Shown here: piece after piece, positions 2,405 through 11,943 of the stretch | Position numbering within the stretch: the first letter of the stretch is position 1 | Layout of the letters: the number at the start of each line of letters is the position of its first letter | From: Gemmatimonadales bacterium | GTDB lineage: Bacteria > Gemmatimonadota > Gemmatimonadetes > Gemmatimonadales > GWC2-71-9 | Length of the DNA stretch: 57,872 nucleotides | Direction of reading: 5' to 3' | Assembly: GCA_036378855.1 (NCBI GenBank) | Contig: DASUVR010000253.1 | Span: 1 to 57,872, forward strand | Translations under genes and position numbers: made by a program | Notes under the pieces: generated by a model | The model's input: the letters and a program-made list of their open reading frames with translations, nothing else | Databases searched by the model: none | What the model was told of the DNA's origin: nothing

Positions 2405-3121
2405 TCACTTCATTTTTCGCTCCAGCAGGATCTGCTGCAACTCCTCGGCGGCGGCGGGACCGGCGGGACTGCCTTCTTCATGCTTGAGAAAGACATACGC
2501 TTCGTCCCAAGGCTGGTCCCCTATGCGAGCGGCCCAGGTGCTCAGCTGTGACCTGTCATAAGTGATCCGCCGAAGACGCAGATAGCCCCACGCAGCGGTG
2601 GGAATCAGTGGGGCGCCCTCACCTTCATCCTCATCGACGGCCACAAGCGCTACGTCCCGGTCGCGAAGCAGCTGGTACACCTCCTCGTCGAACCAGGATT
2701 GGTGGCGAAACTCCACTGCGGCATGCCACCGCCGGGGCAACCGACTCAAGAAGCTCTGCAGCCTGGCGGCGTCCTTCTTGAATGTGGGTGGGAGCTGGAA
2801 AAGCGTGGGTCCCATCTGATGCCCCAAAGGGTTTACGGCCTGGAGAAAATACTCCAGGGAGCCATCCTCATTCTTGAGACGGCCGTTGTGGGTTATTCTC
2901 CGCGAAGCCTTCATGACGAACCTGAACTCCGGTGGAACCTGACTCGCCCACGAGGCAAGAACACGATCGGAAGGAATGCGATAGAACGAGTTGTTTACCT
3001 CGACCGTGGAGAAGCGCGCGGCGTAATACGGCAACATCTCATCGGCGGGAATTTTGGGCGGATAAAAGCTCCCTTTCCATTCCTTATAAGACCAGCCACT
3101 GGTGCCGATGTGGATGTTCAT
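2405..3121 (-). CDS. DUF72 (YecE/UPF0759) family protein
   Basis: MNIHIGTSGWSYKEWKGSFYPPKIP..YYAARFSTVEVNNSFYRIP..FRFVMKASRRITH..LFQLPP..EFRH.SW is the canonical DUF72 motif series. Confidence 0.9.
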   Translation of the reverse strand: MNIHIGTSGWSYKEWKGSFYPPKIPADEMLPYYAARFSTVEVNNSFYRIPSDRVLASWASQVPPEFRFVMKASRRITHNGRLKNEDGSLEYFLQAVNPLGHQMGPTLFQLPPTFKKDAARLQSFLSRLPRRWHAAVEFRHQSWFDEEVYQLLRDRDVALVAVDEDEGEGAPLIPTAAWGYLRLRRITYDRSQLSTWAARIGDQPWDEAYVFLKHEEGSPAGPAAAEELQQILLERKMK

Positions 3122-3255: not shown

Positions 3256-4083
3256 CTACTCCACCAGCCGCTTATACGCCCGCAGATGCCGGATGGCTTC
3301 AGCCCGGCGGCCGAGCTGGTCGTAGAGACGAGCCAGATTGAAGTGGGCATCGGCAAAGCTGGCGTCGGTTTCGATAGCCTGCTGGTAGGCCGCCAGGGCA
3401 TCGCGCCAGCGACCCAGCTCCTCCAGCGCCGTGCCCAGGTTGAACGGGGCCGTAGGATCGGTACTCCCGGCTCGGATGGCAGCGAGGTAATGCTCGAGTG
3501 CTTCTTCGGTGCGGCCGGCCAGTTGCAGCAGGCGGCCGAGGTTCACCTGTGCGTCGGAGAGCTGCGGATTCCGCGTCAGCGCTTGAGCATAGGTTCGGAG
3601 TGCCGCCGCCGGATCGCTGGCCTCGAGCTCCAGAGCTGCATCGAACAACTCCCACGCGTCCGGAACCTGGTGACTGGGTCGGGAGTGAGGCGGCAAAGAC
3701 TTGGCAGCATGGGCGGCCGGGACCTTCGGCGCCGATCCAGCGAAGTCGATCTGGACCTGACCGGATTCCGGATTCCAGGCGGTTCCGCCCTCGTGAACCA
3801 GGAGATCGTCGCCATCGGCAACGATCCGCACTTCACTGAGAGACCGGCCGCTGGGTAGGACCCGGGCGAGCCCGCAGAGCGCGGTGCGGATTCGGCGTAA
3901 TGGGATTCTGGCCTGGGCGAGCTCTCGGGCGGTGCGGAGAAGAACGAGATCTTGAAAGGAGAAGCGGTAGCCGTTGCGGGGGCCGCGCTCGAGAGTGAGG
4001 AACCCCGCCCGAGCCTGGGACCGAACTTGAGTCTCGGACAGGCCCAACAAACGGGCCACATCGCGAGTGGAGAAGGACTCCAT
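3256..4083 (-). CDS. MerR-family HTH transcriptional regulator fused to C-terminal TPR repeats
   Basis: The N-terminus FSTRDVARLLGLSETQVRSQARAGFL...YRFSFQDLVLLRTAREL is a MerR-type HTH. The C-terminal half holds repeated A..Y..AL...P....A..NLG units (TPR). It starts 37 nt downstream of the ku stop on the same strand. Confidence 0.8.
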   Translation of the reverse strand: MESFSTRDVARLLGLSETQVRSQARAGFLTLERGPRNGYRFSFQDLVLLRTARELAQARIPLRRIRTALCGLARVLPSGRSLSEVRIVADGDDLLVHEGGTAWNPESGQVQIDFAGSAPKVPAAHAAKSLPPHSRPSHQVPDAWELFDAALELEASDPAAALRTYAQALTRNPQLSDAQVNLGRLLQLAGRTEEALEHYLAAIRAGSTDPTAPFNLGTALEELGRWRDALAAYQQAIETDASFADAHFNLARLYDQLGRRAEAIRHLRAYKRLVE

Positions 4084-4120: not shown

Positions 4121-4990
4121 CTACCCCCGTCCTGCTGCCTTCCTCTTCCTCGGAGCGGCTTCGGACTCGTCGGGCTTGGCGGGAGCCCGCTTGGCGGGCT
4201 TCATCTCATCCGTGCTGGCGCCCTTCTTGGCCAGACTTGCCTTCAACGCATCCATCAGGTCGATGATCTTGGTCTCGGGAGGGGCCGCGTCTGCCGTGAT
4301 CTCCTGGCCCTCGACCTTGCTCTGAATTGCCTCGAGCACCCGCTCCCGCACCGTATCGTGATAATTCTCAGGCCGAAACTCGTCGGTAGATGACTGCTCG
4401 ATCAGCTGCCGTGCCAGCGCGAGCTCCGCTTCCTTGACCGGAGTCTCCGGGTGGGGGACTTCGGCGACCGGCTTGAGCTCGGCTGCGTAGTGCAGCTGCT
4501 CCATGACCAGCACTCCATCCAAAGGACGAACGAGAACCAGGTGTTGCTTGCCTCGAGCGGAGTACTGACCGAGAGCCGCGCGGCCCGTTGCCTTCAGTGC
4601 TTCGCCCAGCAGCCGGTAGGCCCGGTCTCCACCTTTGTCGGGTCCGAGATAGTAGACCTTGTCGAGGTACATCCGGTCCACCGCGTTGAGCGGCACGAAC
4701 TCGGCGATGTCGATGGAGTTGGTGGCCTTCTCGTCGAGGGCCTTGATCTCTTCGGGAGTGAAGGTGACGTACTGGCCCTTGGAAAATTCGTAGCCCTTGG
4801 TAATCTCATCCCGTTCGACAACGCCGCCGTCTTTGGGACAGATATACTGCTGCTTAAGCCGGGTCCCACACGACTTGTGCAGCATGTTGAAGCTTACAGT
4901 CGCTGACGACTCGCTGGCGGAATACAGCGACACCGGGACGGAGACCAGCCCGAAGGAGATGGTGGCGTTTCCGATTGATCTGGGAGGCAT
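4121..4990 (-). CDS. ku: non-homologous end joining protein Ku
   Basis: MPPRSIGNATISFGLVSVPVSLYSA...KGYEFSKGQYVTFTPEEIKALD...YYLGPDKGGDRAYRLL, with a basic Lys/Ala-rich C-terminal tail. I take the internal ATG at 4990; the ORF extension to 5176 has no Ku similarity. Confidence 0.9.
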   Translation of the reverse strand: MPPRSIGNATISFGLVSVPVSLYSASESSATVSFNMLHKSCGTRLKQQYICPKDGGVVERDEITKGYEFSKGQYVTFTPEEIKALDEKATNSIDIAEFVPLNAVDRMYLDKVYYLGPDKGGDRAYRLLGEALKATGRAALGQYSARGKQHLVLVRPLDGVLVMEQLHYAAELKPVAEVPHPETPVKEAELALARQLIEQSSTDEFRPENYHDTVRERVLEAIQSKVEGQEITADAAPPETKIIDLMDALKASLAKKGASTDEMKPAKRAPAKPDESEAAPRKRKAAGRG

Positions 4991-5148
4991 TGGCACCCAT
5001 ATACGCTGCAAATCGGGAGCCCGCAAGGAGCGGCCCTTGAAGTGAGCAGTGAACTGGTTGACTCTCACACAGTTGCCGAGATCATCTACATTCGATATGT
5101 CGCAGCGGCGCATCATGCATCGCGCGGTGAGTCTCTTAACTTTCCTCG

Positions 5149-7698
5149 ATGCCCTCGTCACCTGATCGCCTTTCACCCTACCGGGGCAAGCGTTCGCTCG
5201 ACCGGACGCCGGAGCCGTCAGGTTCCGTCGGTGAACGGCGGGAAGGCGGTGGGGTGTTCGTGGTTCATAAGCACGCTGCTCGCCGGCTGCACTACGACCT
5301 GCGGTTGGAGATGGAAGGGGTTCTTCGCTCCTGGGCGGTTCCGAAGGGCCCCTCCTACGACTCAGCCGACAAGCGGCTCGCCGTACTGGTGGAGGATCAT
5401 CCCCTGGAGTACGGGGATTTCGAAGGACTGATTCCAGAGGGCAACTACGGCGCTGGTGCGGTGATTGTGTGGGACCGGGGGAGGTGGGCTCCGCTGGAAG
5501 ATCCAGTTGAAGGCCTCGCCAAAGGCAAGCTCCTGTTCGAACTCCAGGGTATCAAGCTGCGAGGGGTGTGGACCTTGGTAAAGCTGAAGAAGGGAGAGAA
5601 CGAGTGGCTCTTCATCAAGGAGCGTGACGGATACACCGCTTCTCCGGGAAATTTCTCCGAGCAGTCCGTCCTCTCGGGTCTTACCATCGAAGATCTCAAG
5701 GCCGGGAGAACTCCGGCCCAGGAGGTCCGGGCTGAGCTCTCGCGTCTCAGTGTACCCCTGCGAGAGGTGGATGCCGCCACGCTGCGTCCTATGCTGGCCG
5801 AGGCGCAGGAAAAACCGTTCAACGCTCCGGGGTGGCTCTTCGAGCTCAAGCTCGATGGCTACCGGACACTGGCGTCACGAGACCGGACCTCACGGGTGCT
5901 CTCACGGAACGGCAACGACCTCTCGGCCTGCTTCCCGGAAATCGTGCAGGCGCTCAAGGCGCTGCCCTTCGAGCGACTGCTGCTCGACGGCGAGCTGGTG
6001 GCCCTCGACGAACACGGTCGCCCCAGCTTTCAGCGCCTGCAGCAACGCGCCCAGCTTCGGAGAGCTCTCGATATCCGCCACGCGGTGGTGGACTGCCCCG
6101 TGACATTTTACGCCTTCGATCTGCTGGCTTTCGATGGGTTCGATCTTCGCGGGCTGCCGCTGTCGAGCAGAAAACGGCTGCTTCAGCGCGTAGTGCCGCT
6201 GGCCGGAGTCATTCGCTATCTCGATCACTTCGAGGACGACGGCATTGTTCTTTACCAGCAGGTTCAGAAGCTCGGGCTCGAAGGGATCGTGGCTAAACGT
6301 GGTGATTCACCGTACAAGAGTGGCAGATCCCCGGTTTGGATAAAAGTCAGAACCCGGCGCACCGAGGATTTCGTGGTGGTGGGGTTCACCGAGCCCAAGG
6401 GGAGTAGGAGTGGATTCGGCGCCTTGCACCTGGGGTCCTATCACCACGGAGAGCTAAGGTATAGCGGCCGGGCCGGCAGCGGCTTCAGTGACAAACAGCT
6501 CTTCGAAGTTCGGCAGACTCTGCAGTCGCTCCTTCTCAAAGAAGCTCCTTGCTCGGGGCCGTTGCCTTTAGGCGACGGGACCAGGTGGGTAGAACCTCAA
6601 CTGGTCTGCGAGGTGGAGTACACCGAGCGTACCGAGGAAGGGCTGCTCCGCCAACCGGTGTTTCTCCGCTTCCGCGACGACAAGAAGCCGGAAGAGTGCG
6701 TTGCAACCGGGGAAGCGGGGAAGCCGGAAAGTCGGGAGCTAAAAGCTGAACCCAGGCGCAAAGCTACTCGGGCGAAGAGTGCTGGAAGCCAGGAGCGGGG
6801 CGAATCGGCAACCGCCAGCGAGACCCAGTTCACCAATCTGAAAAAGATCTTCTGGCCCGAGGAAGGGTATACCAAGGGAGATCTGATCGAGTACTATCGC
6901 AACGTGTCTCGCTGGATTTTGCCGTATCTCATCGACCGTCCAGTGGTCCTCACCCGCTTTCCCGACGGGATTGCCGGAAAGTCCTTCTTTCAGGTGGATG
7001 CTCCACGCTTCGTTCCTGAGTGGATCCGAACCGAACGCCGCTGGAGCGAGCAGGCCGCGCGTGAGATCGATCATTTCGTATGTGACGACGAAGCCTCCCT
7101 GCTGTATCTGATAAACCTGGGAACCATCCCTCTCCATGTGTGGAGCAGCAGAACCGCCGATATCCAGCATCCGGACTGGTGTGTGCTCGATTTAGACCCC
7201 AAAGGCGCCCCTTTCACGGATGTGGTCAAAGTCGCTGAGGTGGCACACGAGCTTTGCCGGAACATCGGACTGCCCTGCTTGGTGAAGACCAGCGGCTCCT
7301 CGGGCCTCCACCTGATGATTCCGCTCGCAGGGCAGTGTCTGCACGATCATGCGCGTACGCTCGGTGAGCTGCTCGCCCGACTCATTGCGGCAGAGCTCCC
7401 TGAGATAGCCACGCTGGCTCGTCAGATCTCCCGGCGGGAAGGCAGAGTGTATCTGGATTACCTGCAGAACGGTGCCGGCCGTCTCATCGTAGCCCCATTC
7501 AGCGCGCGACCGCTGCCCGGGGCCCCCGTTTCCATGCCGCTCCAGTGGGCCGAGGTAACTCCCCAGTTGAGTATCAAGTCTTTCACCATAGCCAACGCGT
7601 CGGACCGGATGCGGAAGCTCAAGCGTGACCCACTGCGAGAGCTTCTCGATGTGCAACCGGACATCAGTGCTGCGCTGGCGAGGCTGGCGAAACGATAG
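5149..7698 (+). CDS. ligD: ATP-dependent DNA ligase LigD, three-domain (phosphoesterase, ligase, polymerase/primase)
   Basis: N-terminal PE domain (YRGKRSLDRTPEP..FVVHKHAARRLHYDLRLE). Ligase domain with adenylation motif FELKLDGYR. Charged linker. C-terminal Pol domain (FTNLKKIFWPEEGYTKGDLIEYY...VKTSGSSGLHL...YLDYLQN). Divergent from ku. Confidence 0.95.
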   Translation: MPSSPDRLSPYRGKRSLDRTPEPSGSVGERREGGGVFVVHKHAARRLHYDLRLEMEGVLRSWAVPKGPSYDSADKRLAVLVEDHPLEYGDFEGLIPEGNYGAGAVIVWDRGRWAPLEDPVEGLAKGKLLFELQGIKLRGVWTLVKLKKGENEWLFIKERDGYTASPGNFSEQSVLSGLTIEDLKAGRTPAQEVRAELSRLSVPLREVDAATLRPMLAEAQEKPFNAPGWLFELKLDGYRTLASRDRTSRVLSRNGNDLSACFPEIVQALKALPFERLLLDGELVALDEHGRPSFQRLQQRAQLRRALDIRHAVVDCPVTFYAFDLLAFDGFDLRGLPLSSRKRLLQRVVPLAGVIRYLDHFEDDGIVLYQQVQKLGLEGIVAKRGDSPYKSGRSPVWIKVRTRRTEDFVVVGFTEPKGSRSGFGALHLGSYHHGELRYSGRAGSGFSDKQLFEVRQTLQSLLLKEAPCSGPLPLGDGTRWVEPQLVCEVEYTERTEEGLLRQPVFLRFRDDKKPEECVATGEAGKPESRELKAEPRRKATRAKSAGSQERGESATASETQFTNLKKIFWPEEGYTKGDLIEYYRNVSRWILPYLIDRPVVLTRFPDGIAGKSFFQVDAPRFVPEWIRTERRWSEQAAREIDHFVCDDEASLLYLINLGTIPLHVWSSRTADIQHPDWCVLDLDPKGAPFTDVVKVAEVAHELCRNIGLPCLVKTSGSSGLHLMIPLAGQCLHDHARTLGELLARLIAAELPEIATLARQISRREGRVYLDYLQNGAGRLIVAPFSARPLPGAPVSMPLQWAEVTPQLSIKSFTIANASDRMRKLKRDPLRELLDVQPDISAALARLAKR

Positions 7699-8397
7699 AT
7701 GACCACTGAAGCGGCGGATCTCCGGCTCCATGTCTCTCCCAGCATCGGAGAAGTCCAGGCCTTTCTGCTGCGTCCTCCGGACGCCTGGTTGCTCTACGTC
7801 ATGGCCCATGGCGCCGGCGCCGGAATGCGACACCAGTTTCTCGAGCGCATATCAGCATCGCTCGGGGCGAGGGGTGTAGCGACATTCCGCTACCAGTTTC
7901 CCTACATGGAAGCCGGTCGCAACCGGCCCGACCCGCCAGCCATACTCCAGGAAACAGTCCGAGCAGCGGTGATGAAGGCCGGCGAGATCGTTCCTGAGCT
8001 GCCCATAGTAGCGGGCGGAAAATCTCTGGGTGGACGGATGACTTCTTCCGCGGCAGCTAGCGCTTCACTCGATCGCGCCCGGGGGCTGGTGTTTCTCGGC
8101 TTTCCGCTGCACCCTCCGGGGCAGCCCGGCACTCACCGGGCGGATCACCTTCAAGCCGTAGATGTCCCCATGCTTTTTCTCCAGGGAACCCGCGATGGGT
8201 TTGCCCGGCTCGATCTGATTACGGATGTCACCAGCCGCCTGCAATCGCTCGCCACCCTGCACCTGGTGGACGGGGCCGATCACTCGTTTGGCGTCTCCAA
8301 GCGGGCGGGTCGATCTCAGGAACAGGTCATAGACGAGCTAGCCGAAGCCATTGTCGGCTGGGCTCGCGCGCTCGGTGGGGAAGCCGTCCGGGCATGA
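7699..8397 (+). CDS. alpha/beta family hydrolase (COG3571 / KANL3-Tex30-like)
   Basis: AHGAGAGMRHQFLE, the nucleophile elbow GGKSLGGR (G-x-S-x-G), and LQGTRD...H near the C-terminus. Its ATG directly abuts the ligD TAG (TAGATG), and its stop overlaps the next ATG. Confidence 0.8.
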   Translation: MTTEAADLRLHVSPSIGEVQAFLLRPPDAWLLYVMAHGAGAGMRHQFLERISASLGARGVATFRYQFPYMEAGRNRPDPPAILQETVRAAVMKAGEIVPELPIVAGGKSLGGRMTSSAAASASLDRARGLVFLGFPLHPPGQPGTHRADHLQAVDVPMLFLQGTRDGFARLDLITDVTSRLQSLATLHLVDGADHSFGVSKRAGRSQEQVIDELAEAIVGWARALGGEAVRA

Positions 8398-11327
8398 ATT
8401 TCGAGCCCACTGTCCAGCAGCGCCTTGCCATCGAGGCCCCCCTGGGTCCGGTGCTGGTCATGGCGGGGCCCGGTGCCGGGAAGACCTACTGTTTGATTTG
8501 TCGGGTCCAGCATCTCATCCAGGAGCTCGGAATTGCGCCTCGCAGGATCCTGGCTGTCACCTTTACCAACAAGGCAGCTGAAGAGATCGCCCTCCGGCTC
8601 CGCGAGGCGCGGGGGTACGCGGCGGAGGACATCACTCGCGGAACGCTTCACGCTCTGTGCTTCAAGGTGCTGCGAGACTTTCCCGAGCAGTGCGGACTGC
8701 GCCCCGGTTTCGGAGTGGCGGACCAGGAGTACCAGCTTGGGGTGTTGAAGCGATTGCGGGTGCCGGAAAAGCGACGGGCCCAGGTCCTGGCCTTGTTCAG
8801 TCTCTATCGTCTGCAGGGACGGTTGCTCGGCGAGCGCGGCACGGCGTTGCTGGGGCGCTATCAGGAGCGTTTGCGTGATCGCAATCTGGCCGACTTCGAC
8901 GATCTGGTCGTTTTGACCGAGCGCCTCCTCCGGACCGATTCCTCCGCGGCAGCCCAGCTCCGCGCCAGGTGGGACTACGTGCTGGTAGACGAGTTTCAGG
9001 ATTTGAGTCCGGTTCAGTACGGCGTCGTTCGGCAGCTGGCGGAGGGACATCGAAATCTCTTCGGGGTGGGTGATGACGAGCAGGCGATTTTTTCCTGGGC
9101 CGGATCGGACCCGCACATCATTCACCGGTTCCGCGACGATTTTGGACTGACCCATCCCATCGTGTTGGACCGAAACTGTCGCTGCTCGGTGCAGATCTTC
9201 GATGCCGCCAAGCGGCTGATTGCCTGTAACCCTCGTCTATTCGAGAAGCAGATCGAGGCTACCCGGGACTCACGATTCGACGTTCAGGTAGAAGCGTTTG
9301 ATAGCGATGAGGATGAAGTCGCCTGGCTGATCGAGGATCTGCGGAGAGACCAGGCCGAGCATGGCGGCGGGTGGGGTGACACTGCCCTGCTGTACCGGTC
9401 CCATCGGCTGGGACGGTACCTGGAGGAGCGGCTGGTCTGCTCCGGCATACCGTGCCGGCTGGCCCAGGGACACGCTCTCACCGACGACAAAATAGTCGGC
9501 TGGGTCATAGCGTCCTTGCAGGTGATCCGATCCCCCGACGACCCGGTTCGGCTCGGAGTTCTGGCCGAGCACGCGCTCCCTCCGGCAGTGCGGCAGGAGG
9601 TATCGAAGAGCTTCGTTCGGGGAAAGGACCTGGTGACCAACCTCAGGAACTTTGCCGCCTCTCGTCCCCGCGGCGATGCGGATGCCCGGCGAGTCTGGCG
9701 GCTCATCTACCACCTCGAAAACCTTCGAGGCATGGCGCGCTCGCATCACACCCTACCCGGATTGGTGGACGAGCTGCTCACCCGTCCGATCGGGGCGGGA
9801 CGCAATCCCCTCGAGGAGCACCATCACGATCTGAGCGATCCGGGAGCATATCCGGGTGCCGCGTTCCTGGCAGGCCAGATCAGCCGCGCCGTTGCCGCAG
9901 GTCAGCGGATCAGCGTGGAGCCGAGTGGGGGCCTGGAGATCCCGCTGGTGGCGATGTTGCGTGCGGCGGGGCTGCCTCAGGCGCAACCTCTCTCCGGCCC
10001 TCAAGACTCCGCTACTTCCGACCTGGTGCTCAGGCCCGCCGAGGGCAGCAGGGGATGGCCGATCCGGCTGTTCAAGGCGCTCCAGCTGATCCAGACCCGC
10101 GGACTCAAGAGCGACTTCGATGATTTTGTCGCCTTCGATCTCGAGACCAGCGATTTCGACATCGAGACTTGCGAGATCGTGGAGATCGCGGCGGTGCGGG
10201 TGCGTCAGCGCGTGGTGGTAGAGCATTTCCATAGCCTCATCGCCTGCTGCCGGCCCATCTCGGCTCCGGCAACCGAGGTGCATGGTTACACCGATCAGGA
10301 TGTCGCCGAAGCACCCCCGCTGGATCAGGTCTGGGCCCGGTTTCGCGCGTTTGTGGGTACCGATCTGCTGGTGGCGCACAACGGACAGGAGTTTGATGTC
10401 CCGGTGCTGCGCCGGCTTTGCCGAGACCTTCCCGGCATCGACGACCTGGTATTCTACGACACCTTACCTCTGGCCAGGTCGCTGGTCGAAGGGAGCGCCA
10501 GACTCACCGAGCTGGCTGCCCGATTCAATGTGGAGGTGGGTCGCGCGCACCACGCCTTCGATGACGCCTACATGCTGGCAGGCGTGGTTCCCGCGCTGAA
10601 CGAGCTGCGAATGAGGCGGGCCCGGAAGATCGCGGCGGTCAATTTGCTCGATCAGCTGGGCCTTGCCCTCGCAGTTGATCCCAACCGCGGAGACGGAGAA
10701 GAGGAAACTCTGCTCCGCGATATCACCCGACCCTTCACCCTTGGCCGCTACAGCGATTGCCTGGAGGGTTACGCCGCAGAGATTGCCCGGGGCGTCGTGG
10801 GCCCCTCGATCGAGGAAGTGGTGGAGCGATTGGGCGGGCGGGTCCTGATGGAGCGTCTCCGGGCTGAGCGAACGGTCTCGGATCGCTATCCCGTGGCGGT
10901 CGAGCGGCTGCGGATGCTGATACAGGCCAGCACGGGAGAGTCGGTGGCCCATCAGATCGATGATCTGCTGAGCCGGGCTGCGCTCTCCACCAGCGCAGGA
11001 GCAGAGACCCACCCGGATCGAGTCAACCTATTGACCCTCCACTCGACCAAGGGACTGGAGTTCTCCCGGGTGTACATCGTGGGGGTCGAAGATCAACAAC
11101 TGCCCGGATGGAAGGCTCTGGAAGAGAATATGGAGGCCGAGATCCAGGAGGCCAGGCGCCTGCTGTATGTCGGTATGACCCGGGCCAAGGACCGGCTCGT
11201 TCTCACCCGAGCCCAGCGCCGGGCCGGCTTGCCGACGGGCGGAAGCCTTTTTCTCACCGAGGCTGGACTGAGCCAACACCAGAGTGGCATACCTCCTGCA
11301 TTAGCCGCCCCCGTCACAATCAGGTAG
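8394..11327 (+). CDS. UvrD/Rep-family SF1 helicase with an internally inserted DEDDh (DnaQ-like) 3'-5' exonuclease domain
   Basis: Helicase motifs: I AGPGAGKTY, II LVDEFQDLSP, III GVGDDEQAIFSWAG, IV LDRNCRC, and V/VI LTLHSTKGLEFSRVYIVG and LLYVGMTRAKDRLVLT. Between motifs IV and V lie exonuclease motifs FDLETSD (about 10135), AHNGQEFDVPVL, and HHAFDDA (about 10548). Confidence 0.9.
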   Translation: MNFEPTVQQRLAIEAPLGPVLVMAGPGAGKTYCLICRVQHLIQELGIAPRRILAVTFTNKAAEEIALRLREARGYAAEDITRGTLHALCFKVLRDFPEQCGLRPGFGVADQEYQLGVLKRLRVPEKRRAQVLALFSLYRLQGRLLGERGTALLGRYQERLRDRNLADFDDLVVLTERLLRTDSSAAAQLRARWDYVLVDEFQDLSPVQYGVVRQLAEGHRNLFGVGDDEQAIFSWAGSDPHIIHRFRDDFGLTHPIVLDRNCRCSVQIFDAAKRLIACNPRLFEKQIEATRDSRFDVQVEAFDSDEDEVAWLIEDLRRDQAEHGGGWGDTALLYRSHRLGRYLEERLVCSGIPCRLAQGHALTDDKIVGWVIASLQVIRSPDDPVRLGVLAEHALPPAVRQEVSKSFVRGKDLVTNLRNFAASRPRGDADARRVWRLIYHLENLRGMARSHHTLPGLVDELLTRPIGAGRNPLEEHHHDLSDPGAYPGAAFLAGQISRAVAAGQRISVEPSGGLEIPLVAMLRAAGLPQAQPLSGPQDSATSDLVLRPAEGSRGWPIRLFKALQLIQTRGLKSDFDDFVAFDLETSDFDIETCEIVEIAAVRVRQRVVVEHFHSLIACCRPISAPATEVHGYTDQDVAEAPPLDQVWARFRAFVGTDLLVAHNGQEFDVPVLRRLCRDLPGIDDLVFYDTLPLARSLVEGSARLTELAARFNVEVGRAHHAFDDAYMLAGVVPALNELRMRRARKIAAVNLLDQLGLALAVDPNRGDGEEETLLRDITRPFTLGRYSDCLEGYAAEIARGVVGPSIEEVVERLGGRVLMERLRAERTVSDRYPVAVERLRMLIQASTGESVAHQIDDLLSRAALSTSAGAETHPDRVNLLTLHSTKGLEFSRVYIVGVEDQQLPGWKALEENMEAEIQEARRLLYVGMTRAKDRLVLTRAQRRAGLPTGGSLFLTEAGLSQHQSGIPPALAAPVTIR

Positions 11328-11334
11328 GTATCCA

Positions 11335-11943
11335 GTGAGGCTCGTCGCTTATGCCCTGCCGCTTCTGGCTGGGGCTCCGAGCGTGATGGCTGCGCAGGTC
11401 ACCATCGCTCTTCCTCGGGTCCAGCGTCCGGTGGTCCGGGCAACGCTTGGCCCCATCTCAGTCGTTGCAACAGTTGGCGGACGGGGCGTGAACCTTCGTG
11501 CTACACCGGGCACCACCCACCCGACAACTCCTACCCACACTGCCGGCGCAGGGCATGCCACCGCCGCCGGCGTTCTGGCCACCGCCAAACGCTATCTGGG
11601 GGCGCACTATCGCTACGGCGGTGAGAGTCCCGTGTCCGGCTTCGACTGCTCCGGGTTTGTCCAGTATGTGTTCGGGCGACACGGTGTCAAACTGCCGCGC
11701 ACTTCCCGCGGGCAGGCATCGGCCGGTAGCCCGGTATCTCTGGATGTGGCCTCGCTCCGTCCCGGTGATCTTCTTCTTTTTGCCAGCACCGGGACCATTG
11801 TCAACCACGTCGCGATTTACGTCGGCAACAACAGAATTCTTCACTCTGCTGCGGGGGCGGGTGGAGTAGTGTACGACGATCTTACCAGCGCCAGGGGAAA
11901 GTGGTACCTGCAGAGGCACGTGGCCTCGCGCCGAGTCCTCTAA
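11335..11943 (+). CDS. C40 family (NlpC/P60) peptidoglycan endopeptidase
   Basis: Signal-like N-terminus. YRYGGESPVSGFDCSGFVQYVF (catalytic Cys), PGDLLLFA, and HVAIYVG (His). GTG start 7 nt after the helicase stop. Confidence 0.88.
   Translation: MRLVAYALPLLAGAPSVMAAQVTIALPRVQRPVVRATLGPISVVATVGGRGVNLRATPGTTHPTTPTHTAGAGHATAAGVLATAKRYLGAHYRYGGESPVSGFDCSGFVQYVFGRHGVKLPRTSRGQASAGSPVSLDVASLRPGDLLLFASTGTIVNHVAIYVGNNRILHSAAGAGGVVYDDLTSARGKWYLQRHVASRRVL

Follow-up and report, generated by a model that had tools for sequence, protein, structure and literature searches.

A UvrD-family helicase of Gemmatimonadales with a predicted DEDDh exonuclease nested in its 2B domain

The stretch of DNA analyzed here, called the window, spans positions 1 to 57,872 of contig DASUVR010000253.1 (assembly GCA_036378855.1) from a Gemmatimonadales bacterium. 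A gene at 8394..11327 on the + strand encodes a protein of 977 residues that, judged from its sequence, is very probably a bifunctional enzyme composed of a superfamily 1A (SF1A) helicase and a DEDDh exonuclease. The exonuclease belongs to a module of ~360 residues (residues 468–830) that profile alignment places in one loop of the 2B domain, with 2B itself retained. A single hydrolase gene separates this gene from the LigD gene of an end-joining locus.

Domain layout of the helicase-exonuclease

The open reading frame (ORF) is unbroken and comprises 977 codons and a stop. Its ATG overlaps the stop codon of the upstream gene (ATGA), and homologs match the protein from residue 1 with 100% coverage. 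The complete SF1A motif set is present, including Walker A, motifs II to VI, and the catalytic Lys, Asp/Glu, Gln, and Arg residues. Walker A (AGPGAGKT) was located in the translation at residues 24–31 (nt 8463–8486, + strand, as for all motifs that follow). Motif II (DEFQD) occupies residues 199–203 (nt 8988–9002), motif III (GDDEQAIF) residues 226–233 (nt 9069–9092), and motif IV (LDRNCRC) residues 258–264 (nt 9165–9185). The exonuclease motifs follow, with Exo I (FDLETSD) at residues 581–587 (nt 10134–10154), Exo II (AHNGQEFD) at residues 661–668 (nt 10374–10397), and Exo III (HHAFDDA) at residues 719–725 (nt 10548–10568). Motif V (LHSTKGLEF, residues 882–890, nt 11037–11063) and motif VI (YVGMTRAKDRL, residues 925–935, nt 11166–11198) complete the helicase.

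A first-pass annotation, made from the letters of the sequence, had described the protein as a UvrD-family helicase whose DEDDh exonuclease lies inside the motor, after motif IV and before motif V, instead of forming a terminal fusion. All motifs that it named are found, in the same order and at the same places. Its spacings are confirmed as well: motif IV and Exo I lie 317 residues apart, and 157 residues separate Exo III from motif V. The internal position of the exonuclease is borne out by Pfam mapping, by alignment to PcrA and UvrD, and by structural models.

Pfam UvrD-helicase matches residues 7–250 (E = 2.5e-62, 211 bits against a cut-off of 23) and RNase_T residues 579–731 (E = 6.3e-24, 85.8 bits against 24). 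UvrD_C has its best stretch at residues 843–940 (E = 4.2e-33, 116 bits against 25.6), and UvrD_C_2 is also matched. The DEDDh residues are D582 and E584 of Exo I, D668 of Exo II, and H719 and D724 of Exo III. PolC exonucleases are the nearest sequence relatives of the exonuclease domain (5e-27 to the PolC type and 1e-18 to PDB 2p1j), and the domain also has a weak Pfam match to the Rv2179c-like family. As a member of the UvrD family, the motor is expected to translocate 3′→5′ on single-stranded DNA (ssDNA) and to unwind duplexes in an ATP-dependent manner.

The site of the insert was mapped by comparison with PcrA and UvrD. A single-sequence search of the PDB aligns residues 8–387 with PcrA 15–411 and residues 804–944 with PcrA 482–624. 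A family profile, built from 48 diverse members, covers residues 8–493 and 504–652 of PcrA (E = 5e-192) and residues 6–484 and 491–644 of UvrD, with E values of 1e-183 to 1e-192. The four-subdomain plan of the motor is kept, with 1B inside 1A and 2B inside 2A. Because both halves of 2B align with PcrA, the module lies within 2B and not in its place. Of the two options in the first-pass annotation, an exonuclease within the 2B/2A accessory region or one replacing it, the former therefore stands and the latter does not. Three levels of nesting result, with the module inserted in 2B, itself an insertion in 2A.

The protein is sequentially composed of eight segments, all encoded on the + strand. 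Domains 1A and 1B and the N-terminal half of 2A (8394..9470, residues 1 to ~359) are assigned by Pfam and the PcrA alignment, their approximate boundary being taken from the UvrD alignment. The N-terminal part of 2B (9471..9794, residues ~360–467) is helical, with helices at residues 366–463 in the model, and contains no GIG motif. The module begins with a small α/β subdomain (9795..10121, residues 468–576), which follows a hinge of low model confidence (residues 465–470) and is the least conserved region of the protein. The DnaQ-like DEDDh 3′–5′ exonuclease domain follows (10122..10628, residues 577–745), as assigned by Pfam RNase_T, the PolC structure 2p1j, and Foldseek. The module ends with a helical subdomain (10629..10883, residues 746–830) and a hinge of lower confidence at residues ~820–830. 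The C-terminal part of 2B (10884..11015, residues ~831–874) starts where the profile resumes, at PcrA 504 and UvrD 491. The C-terminal half of 2A (11016..11243, residues ~875–950) contains motifs V and VI and is matched by UvrD_C and UvrD_C_2. A short C-terminal tail (11244..11324, residues 951–977), for which the model shows disorder from residue 962 onward, carries no Tudor domain.

An AlphaFold2 model of the full-length protein, built from 86 aligned sequences, has a mean predicted local distance difference test score (pLDDT) of 85.9 and a predicted template modeling score (pTM) of 0.63. The pLDDT falls below 50 at the entry to the insert (residues 465–470) and in the tail (residues 962–977), and dips to ~64 near the exit (residues 820–830). 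Modeled alone, the inserted segment reaches a pLDDT of 91.6 and a pTM of 0.85, and the model indicates one compact unit of three parts: the α/β subdomain, the exonuclease, and the helical subdomain.

In Foldseek searches, the predicted exonuclease superimposes on E. coli epsilon with template modeling (TM) scores of 0.79–0.82 and a root mean square deviation (rmsd) of 2.1–2.8 Å. Further matches include, also at TM 0.82, the exonuclease of S. aureus DinG and a CRISPR/Cas2-associated DnaQ domain, and then the PolC exonuclease, ExoX, and TREX1/2. The central region thus has the DnaQ fold of the DEDD class (TM 0.82, rmsd 2.1–2.6 Å to epsilon), with DEDDh residues that are invariant or nearly so in the family, as the first-pass annotation had supposed. 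For the two flanking subdomains, no Pfam family was found and no structural match occurs among the top 50 Foldseek hits. The full model retrieves only ordinary UvrD, PcrA, Rep, AdnB, AddA, and RecB structures, with TM scores of 0.62–0.69 normalized to UvrD, PcrA, and Rep. The composite layout is absent from the PDB (query-normalized TM ≤0.46) and from the viral structure library (≤0.43).

Conservation and origin of the family

The nested layout recurs widely. A homolog search returned at least 120 full-length proteins of ~977 residues with 66–97% identity, ~100% coverage, and the same Pfam set, several of them labeled as Gemmatimonadales. Over 200 full-length homologs were found overall in independent metagenomic and genomic assemblies. 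A search of 1.84 billion cluster representatives added many proteins of 960–1150 residues at 23–48% identity. UvrD-helicase, RNase_T, and UvrD_C are all present in each of 48 aligned cluster representatives, with identity down to 23%. Segment lengths are stable in this set: an N-terminal part of ~400 residues, a linker of 176–325, an exonuclease of ~160, a second linker of 57–80, and a C-terminal part of ~165.

An assembly chimera, or two genes joined by a frameshift, was considered as the origin of the ORF and rejected. The same unbroken layout of 960–1150 residues occurs in hundreds of independent assemblies drawn from several sources, and a helicase split around an exonuclease is unattainable by a simple fusion of two genes. 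The chance that the ORF is an artifact is negligible, and the single genuine ORF read in the first-pass annotation is upheld by the more than 200 independent homologs.

Both predicted active sites are conserved. In the 48 representatives, K30, D199, E200, Q230, R263, K886, G887, E889, and R930 of the motor are invariant. In the nuclease, D582, N663, and D668 are invariant, and conservation reaches 90% or more at E584, H662, H719, and D724. The exonuclease is conserved to the same degree as the motor: within the phylum, mean identity to the window protein is 62% for the exonuclease and 59% for the motor, and across the family the values are 38% and 36%. The 2B halves and the two flanking module subdomains are the most variable parts. 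In the exonuclease region, comparison of the window with three relatives gives non-synonymous (pN) and synonymous (pS) differences of 0.08–0.17 and 0.64–0.74, used only in the qualitative sense of pN << pS because synonymous sites are saturated. Non-synonymous differences are far rarer in every region of the protein.

One member of the alignment, P0169, keeps the layout intact with a degenerate exonuclease. Its Exo I reads DIRAT in place of D-x-E-T, the H-x4-D signature is missing, and the domain is 148 residues long. Loss of catalysis thus does not preclude retention of the nested module.

These observations bear on what the nested domain acts upon. It might serve not as a trimmer of DNA ends but in processing RNA 3′ ends (R-loops or primers), in proofreading for a polymerase, or in a mainly structural or regulatory capacity. 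The DEDDh clan includes RNases, in keeping with the weak Rv2179c-like match, and P0169 has lost its Exo I and Exo III residues while retaining the layout. However, the nearest relatives in sequence and structure are DNA exonucleases, namely the PolC exonuclease, epsilon, ExoX, the DinG exonuclease, and TREX, and 47 of the 48 representatives keep the catalytic residues with little or no change. A role other than DNA end trimming is thus very unlikely.

A neighbor-joining tree of the helicase core (565 columns) separates 59 exonuclease-bearing proteins from 60 canonical UvrD/PcrA proteins by one split; the tree carries no bootstrap, and its canonical sample was taken from the best-scoring matches. 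The single split fits one ancient insertion, and sequence comparison as a whole fits a conserved family of single origin.

The range of the family outside Gemmatimonadota is poorly defined by the present samples. A genome scan was keyed on motifs V and VI, which are universal, and 77 of the 80 loci listed are ordinary UvrD/PcrA genes. The only family members among them are L003 (Planctomycetota), L004 (Gemmatimonadota), and L005 (Poribacteria). A profile search for distant subgroups likewise returned mostly canonical PcrA, with 19 exonuclease-bearing proteins among the matches listed, few of which have organism names. A metagenome scan yielded almost only Gemmatimonadota-like loci, which suits a test of LigD linkage and not one of breadth.

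Relation to canonical UvrD/PcrA and to other helicase-nucleases

UvrD, PcrA, and Rep (PDB 2is1, 1pjr, and 1uaa) share with the window protein the helicase motifs and the 1A/1B/2A/2B plan, and are its best structural matches. The window protein differs from them in bearing the ~360-residue DnaQ module in 2B, in lacking the GIG motif and the Tudor domain, and in falling in a separate clade. It also misses the NCBIfam equivalog cut-offs for pcrA (326 against 911), uvrD (272 against 1144), and rep (299 against 951), as it does those for addA (120 against 708) and recB (112 against 696). The Tudor domain PF21196 gives no match in the window protein at E values up to 0.1. It is found in most canonical PcrA matches and in none of the 19 exonuclease-bearing proteins among the matches listed. 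The GIG motif of 2B is absent from the window protein and from all 12 members sampled.

The loss of the GIG motif is relevant to how the enzyme is controlled. In canonical enzymes, contact between the GIG motif and duplex DNA has been reported to autoinhibit monomers, and the same surface lies at the 2B–2B interface of active dimers. Partner proteins activate UvrD-family monomers by moving 2B. With the GIG motif lost and a large module gained on 2B, regulation must differ from the canonical scheme, and the sequence leaves room for an enzyme that may be active as a monomer. The control of UvrD-family helicases by 2B is an active question, and a natural 2B that lacks GIG and bears a catalytic module of 360 residues offers a way to test how much 2B tolerates and what it can do. 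Such an arrangement would surprise helicase specialists.

The helicase-exonuclease appears to be an extra paralog and not the sole UvrD-type protein of its hosts, because canonical PcrA or UvrD proteins coexist with it. In an 8.08-Mb genome, the family member P0399 occurs together with P0437, a canonical PcrA-like protein of 721 residues, and a Gemmatimonadetes metagenome-assembled genome (MAG) holds an ordinary UvrD-type ORF of 768 residues.

Several known systems join a helicase and a nuclease in one polypeptide. RecB, AddA, and AdnB likewise combine an SF1A 3′→5′ motor with an end-acting nuclease, and their sequence and structural matches to the window protein are weak and confined to the motor. 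Their nuclease is a C-terminal PD-(D/E)xK domain and they form heteromers with a second subunit, whereas the nuclease of the window protein is internal and of the DEDDh type. A C-terminal nuclease of the RecB/AddA type is absent from the window protein, which ends 27 residues past 2A, and no gene for a partner subunit is evident.

S. aureus DinG (PDB 8zef) carries the same type of exonuclease fused to a helicase, as seen in the Foldseek match of the exonuclease and in a phmmer match of 1.7e-4. DinG is reported to be a superfamily 2 (SF2) helicase of 5′→3′ polarity. Its exonuclease is fused at the N terminus and its two activities are opposite in polarity, whereas in the window protein the exonuclease is internal and the predicted polarities match.

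WRN, a eukaryotic RecQ helicase with an N-terminal 3′–5′ exonuclease, works with Ku. It resembles the window protein in combining a 3′→5′ helicase with a 3′–5′ exonuclease of the DnaQ superfamily and, if the gene linkage reflects function, in its tie to Ku-dependent end joining. It differs in its SF2 RecQ motor, its DEDDy-type nuclease, and its terminal fusion, and the two share no sequence kinship beyond the fold class. Mycobacterial UvrD1 has a UvrD-family motor tied to Ku, and its structure (PDB 9dci) is among the top matches of the window protein. UvrD1 has no nuclease. It needs its C-terminal Tudor domain, which the window protein lacks, to bind Ku, and it is activated by 2B–2B dimerization near the GIG region, which the window protein does not conserve.

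The exonuclease of PolC is nested inside a PHP domain. PolC is thus a precedent for a DnaQ domain spliced into the middle of another domain, although its host is a polymerase and not a helicase. The first-pass annotation had cited known helicase-exonuclease combinations as terminal fusions, and no counter-example was found in the PDB, the viral structure library, or the literature. A search of 8 million full texts yielded no paper on a helicase of the UvrD type that bears a DEDDh domain internally; two papers that matched in wording concern unrelated defense systems. No curated family model for the whole protein was found. Annotation pipelines name such proteins 'superfamily I helicase / DNA polymerase III epsilon subunit-like'. 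As these labels cover both parts, the co-occurrence of the domains is already visible in databases. The components are therefore familiar, and the nested layout joins the helicase-nuclease fusions without being a categorically new system. The new element of design would be a nuclease that is nested, not appended, and that would match the polarity of its motor, making the protein a compact candidate for 3′-end processing.

Genomic neighborhood and possible role

Positions 4121–7698 of the window constitute a complete bacterial end-joining locus. The Ku gene (4121..5176, − strand; Pfam Ku 1.5e-48) is divergent from LigD and is also kept in the related loci L001, L002, L086, and L123. LigD (5149..7698, + strand) is the first gene of a co-directional run and encodes 849 residues in the order phosphoesterase, ligase, and primase-polymerase (Pfam LigD_N, DNA_ligase_A_M/C, and LigD_Prim-Pol). 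Its TAG stop directly abuts the ATG of an α/β hydrolase of the Abhydrolase_11 family (PF20408; 7699..8397, + strand; 232 residues, Pfam 1.2e-51), whose stop in turn overlaps the start of the helicase-exonuclease gene. These abutting and overlapping junctions suggest co-translation. A scan for promoters and terminators gave counts no higher than those of shuffled controls and was not used to define operon structure.

The extent of the linkage was examined in 80 metagenomic loci and seven others. Among loci of at least 65% identity that include upstream sequence, LigD and/or the hydrolase lies directly upstream of the helicase-exonuclease gene in every one. Linkage to non-homologous end joining (NHEJ) genes comprises the window and 12 related loci of at least 58% identity, 11 of which have LigD or the hydrolase directly upstream. 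The position of the hydrolase is kept in 11 of the 12, including L123; the contig of L094 contains no upstream sequence. The hydrolase is a conserved member of the Ku/LigD operon in these loci. At L123 (58% identity), Ku, LigD, and the hydrolase are all kept upstream and the downstream genes differ. The retention of the NHEJ genes despite lost downstream synteny argues against a merely passive linkage. The genomic association with end-joining genes is real, if limited to one clade of Gemmatimonadales.

SF1A motors travel 3′→5′ along the ssDNA strand to which they are bound, and DEDDh nucleases shorten nucleic acids from a free 3′ terminus. A 3′→5′ motor and a 3′-end nuclease would thus act with the same polarity on the same strand. 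In the mechanism proposed here, the motor would load on a 3′ tail or flap, or at a nick on its 3′ side, and peel the strand from its partner, and the tethered nuclease would shorten the peeled strand from its 3′ end. UvrD and ExoI/ExoX share such work in 3′-directed mismatch excision, as does the RecB/AddA motor with its rear-mounted nuclease, and one polypeptide would here do the job that is split between UvrD and ExoI/ExoX. Coupled unwinding and 3′-end degradation, as proposed in the first-pass annotation, is a reasonable inference from this arrangement.

The swivel of 2B switches UvrD-type helicases on and off. Because the module rides on the swivelling 2B and the GIG motif is missing, access of the nuclease to its substrate is probably tied to the state of the motor. 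The two flexible hinges on 2B would let the conformation of the motor govern access to the 3′ end, and a hinge-mounted nuclease would favor short tails of the kind present at DNA breaks. In the Gemmatimonadales lineage of the window, the enzyme could trim non-complementary or damaged 3′ overhangs, flaps, and termini at Ku-bound breaks. Trimming would precede fill-in and sealing by LigD and would make the enzyme a functional analog of WRN or mycobacterial UvrD1. Ku has been reported to stimulate the UvrD-family helicase UvrD1 in mycobacteria. The operon link raises the testable idea that some bacteria add a helicase-exonuclease, and perhaps a hydrolase, to two-protein NHEJ. We give this full account, same-strand coupling together with an end-joining role in this clade, about an even chance of being right.

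A number of observations weigh against it. Some ~25 Gemmatimonadota loci of 49–56% identity have at least 4 kb of upstream sequence and no adjoining Ku or LigD, and two long Gemmatimonadales contigs carry neither gene nearby. Ku and LigD are also absent at the locus of a Planctomycetota MAG (46% identity, from an aligned C-terminal segment), at two Poribacteria-type loci, and at four other distant members. The confinement of LigD linkage to one clade implies that end joining is not the ancestral or general role of the family. UvrD1 is reported to bind Ku through its Tudor domain, which the helicase-exonuclease lacks. The free 3′ end may trail far behind the motor, which would make short tails the most favorable substrates for same-strand coupling. 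Finally, the overall pTM of 0.63 is too low for a dependable prediction of how module and motor are placed with respect to each other.

A rival reading is a general genome-maintenance helicase-exonuclease, acting for example in gap or nick excision, on 3′ flaps, or at stalled forks, for which the position beside LigD would be a lineage-specific accident. Most family members stand alone with unrelated and variable neighbors, the family is widespread in Gemmatimonadota with identities that look vertically inherited, and at one locus PolX and a methyltransferase repair gene are found no more than 7 kb away. The abutting or overlapping ligD and hydrolase junctions, with their suggestion of co-translation, and the upstream NHEJ block kept at L123 where downstream genes differ weigh against this reading. 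General maintenance is accordingly a possible explanation, held with less conviction than the end-joining account. If it is correct, the protein broadens what is known of DNA repair in Gemmatimonadota, an understudied phylum abundant in soils.

A bolder form of the end-joining account, which we regard as speculative and rather doubtful, is that the family represents an unrecognized class of self-contained 3′-strand excision enzyme in which the 2B swivel presents and withdraws the nuclease. In the LigD-linked clade it would be a third dedicated NHEJ enzyme, providing 3′-end resection or flap removal as a counterpart of WRN. We know of no established source of this activity in bacterial NHEJ.

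Some relatives have neighbors reminiscent of defense systems, and an anti-phage or anti-plasmid nuclease-helicase, similar to Gabija GajB or to Nhi, that degrades invading DNA was weighed as well. The best PADLOC matches of the protein are GajB models (3e-89) and a CRISPR-associated DEDDh model (2e-32), but the GajB matches span the generic UvrD core only. At L167 (6064–11018; P0415, on a 1.47-Mb contig), the gene directly follows AAA_21/AAA_15 ATPase genes on the same strand and a DUF4276 gene. This OLD/Gabija-like arrangement suggests a defense operon in that lineage; the RNase_T match of the L167 protein is weak. L005 (680–7889) has an upstream Type ISP restriction-modification enzyme of 1608 residues and a divergent Mut7-C/DUF5615 RNase, L166 lies beside a HicB antitoxin and several transposases, and L168 lies beside a SocA_Panacea/HTH antitoxin-like gene. 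In the window, in contrast, the genes near the helicase-exonuclease gene are LigD, the hydrolase, and an NlpC/P60 gene, and no GajA-like or other defense gene adjoins it. The locus is syntenic chromosomal DNA with no marks of mobile elements and no shift in GC content. The sole plasmid match is partial and covers the exonuclease domain alone, and the layout does not occur among the viral structures. A defense function is therefore unlikely for the window gene, although parts of the family may serve such a role. Membership of the window gene in Gabija was rejected, given that the PADLOC GajB matches are to the generic core and GajA is not adjacent.

No universal neighbor of the family emerged from clustering of the ORFs near the gene, in which spurious high-GC ORFs predominated. 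A DinB-like protein and a sensor kinase are the only genuine neighbors that recur, and they reflect synteny within sub-clades. At L084 (6397–6885), a Poribacteria-type locus, a divergent Mut7-C/DUF5615 RNase adjoins the family gene.

The remaining genes around the window locus are shared with relatives to varying extents. An NlpC/P60 cell-wall peptidase gene (11335–11943, + strand) starts 7 nt past the stop of the helicase-exonuclease gene. It is syntenic at 65% identity or above wherever contigs reach downstream, but not at L123, and is probably a passenger of the gene run and not a functional partner. A MerR-HTH/TPR protein (3256–4083, − strand) and a DUF72 protein (2405–3121, − strand) are encoded just past Ku; both genes are syntenic in relatives. 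The locus L086 (contig JADMIO011851683.1, 115 kb), which would offer flanks longer than those of the window, carries the same Ku, LigD, hydrolase, helicase-exonuclease, and NlpC/P60 region with 93–98% protein identity, and represents the same or a very close population.

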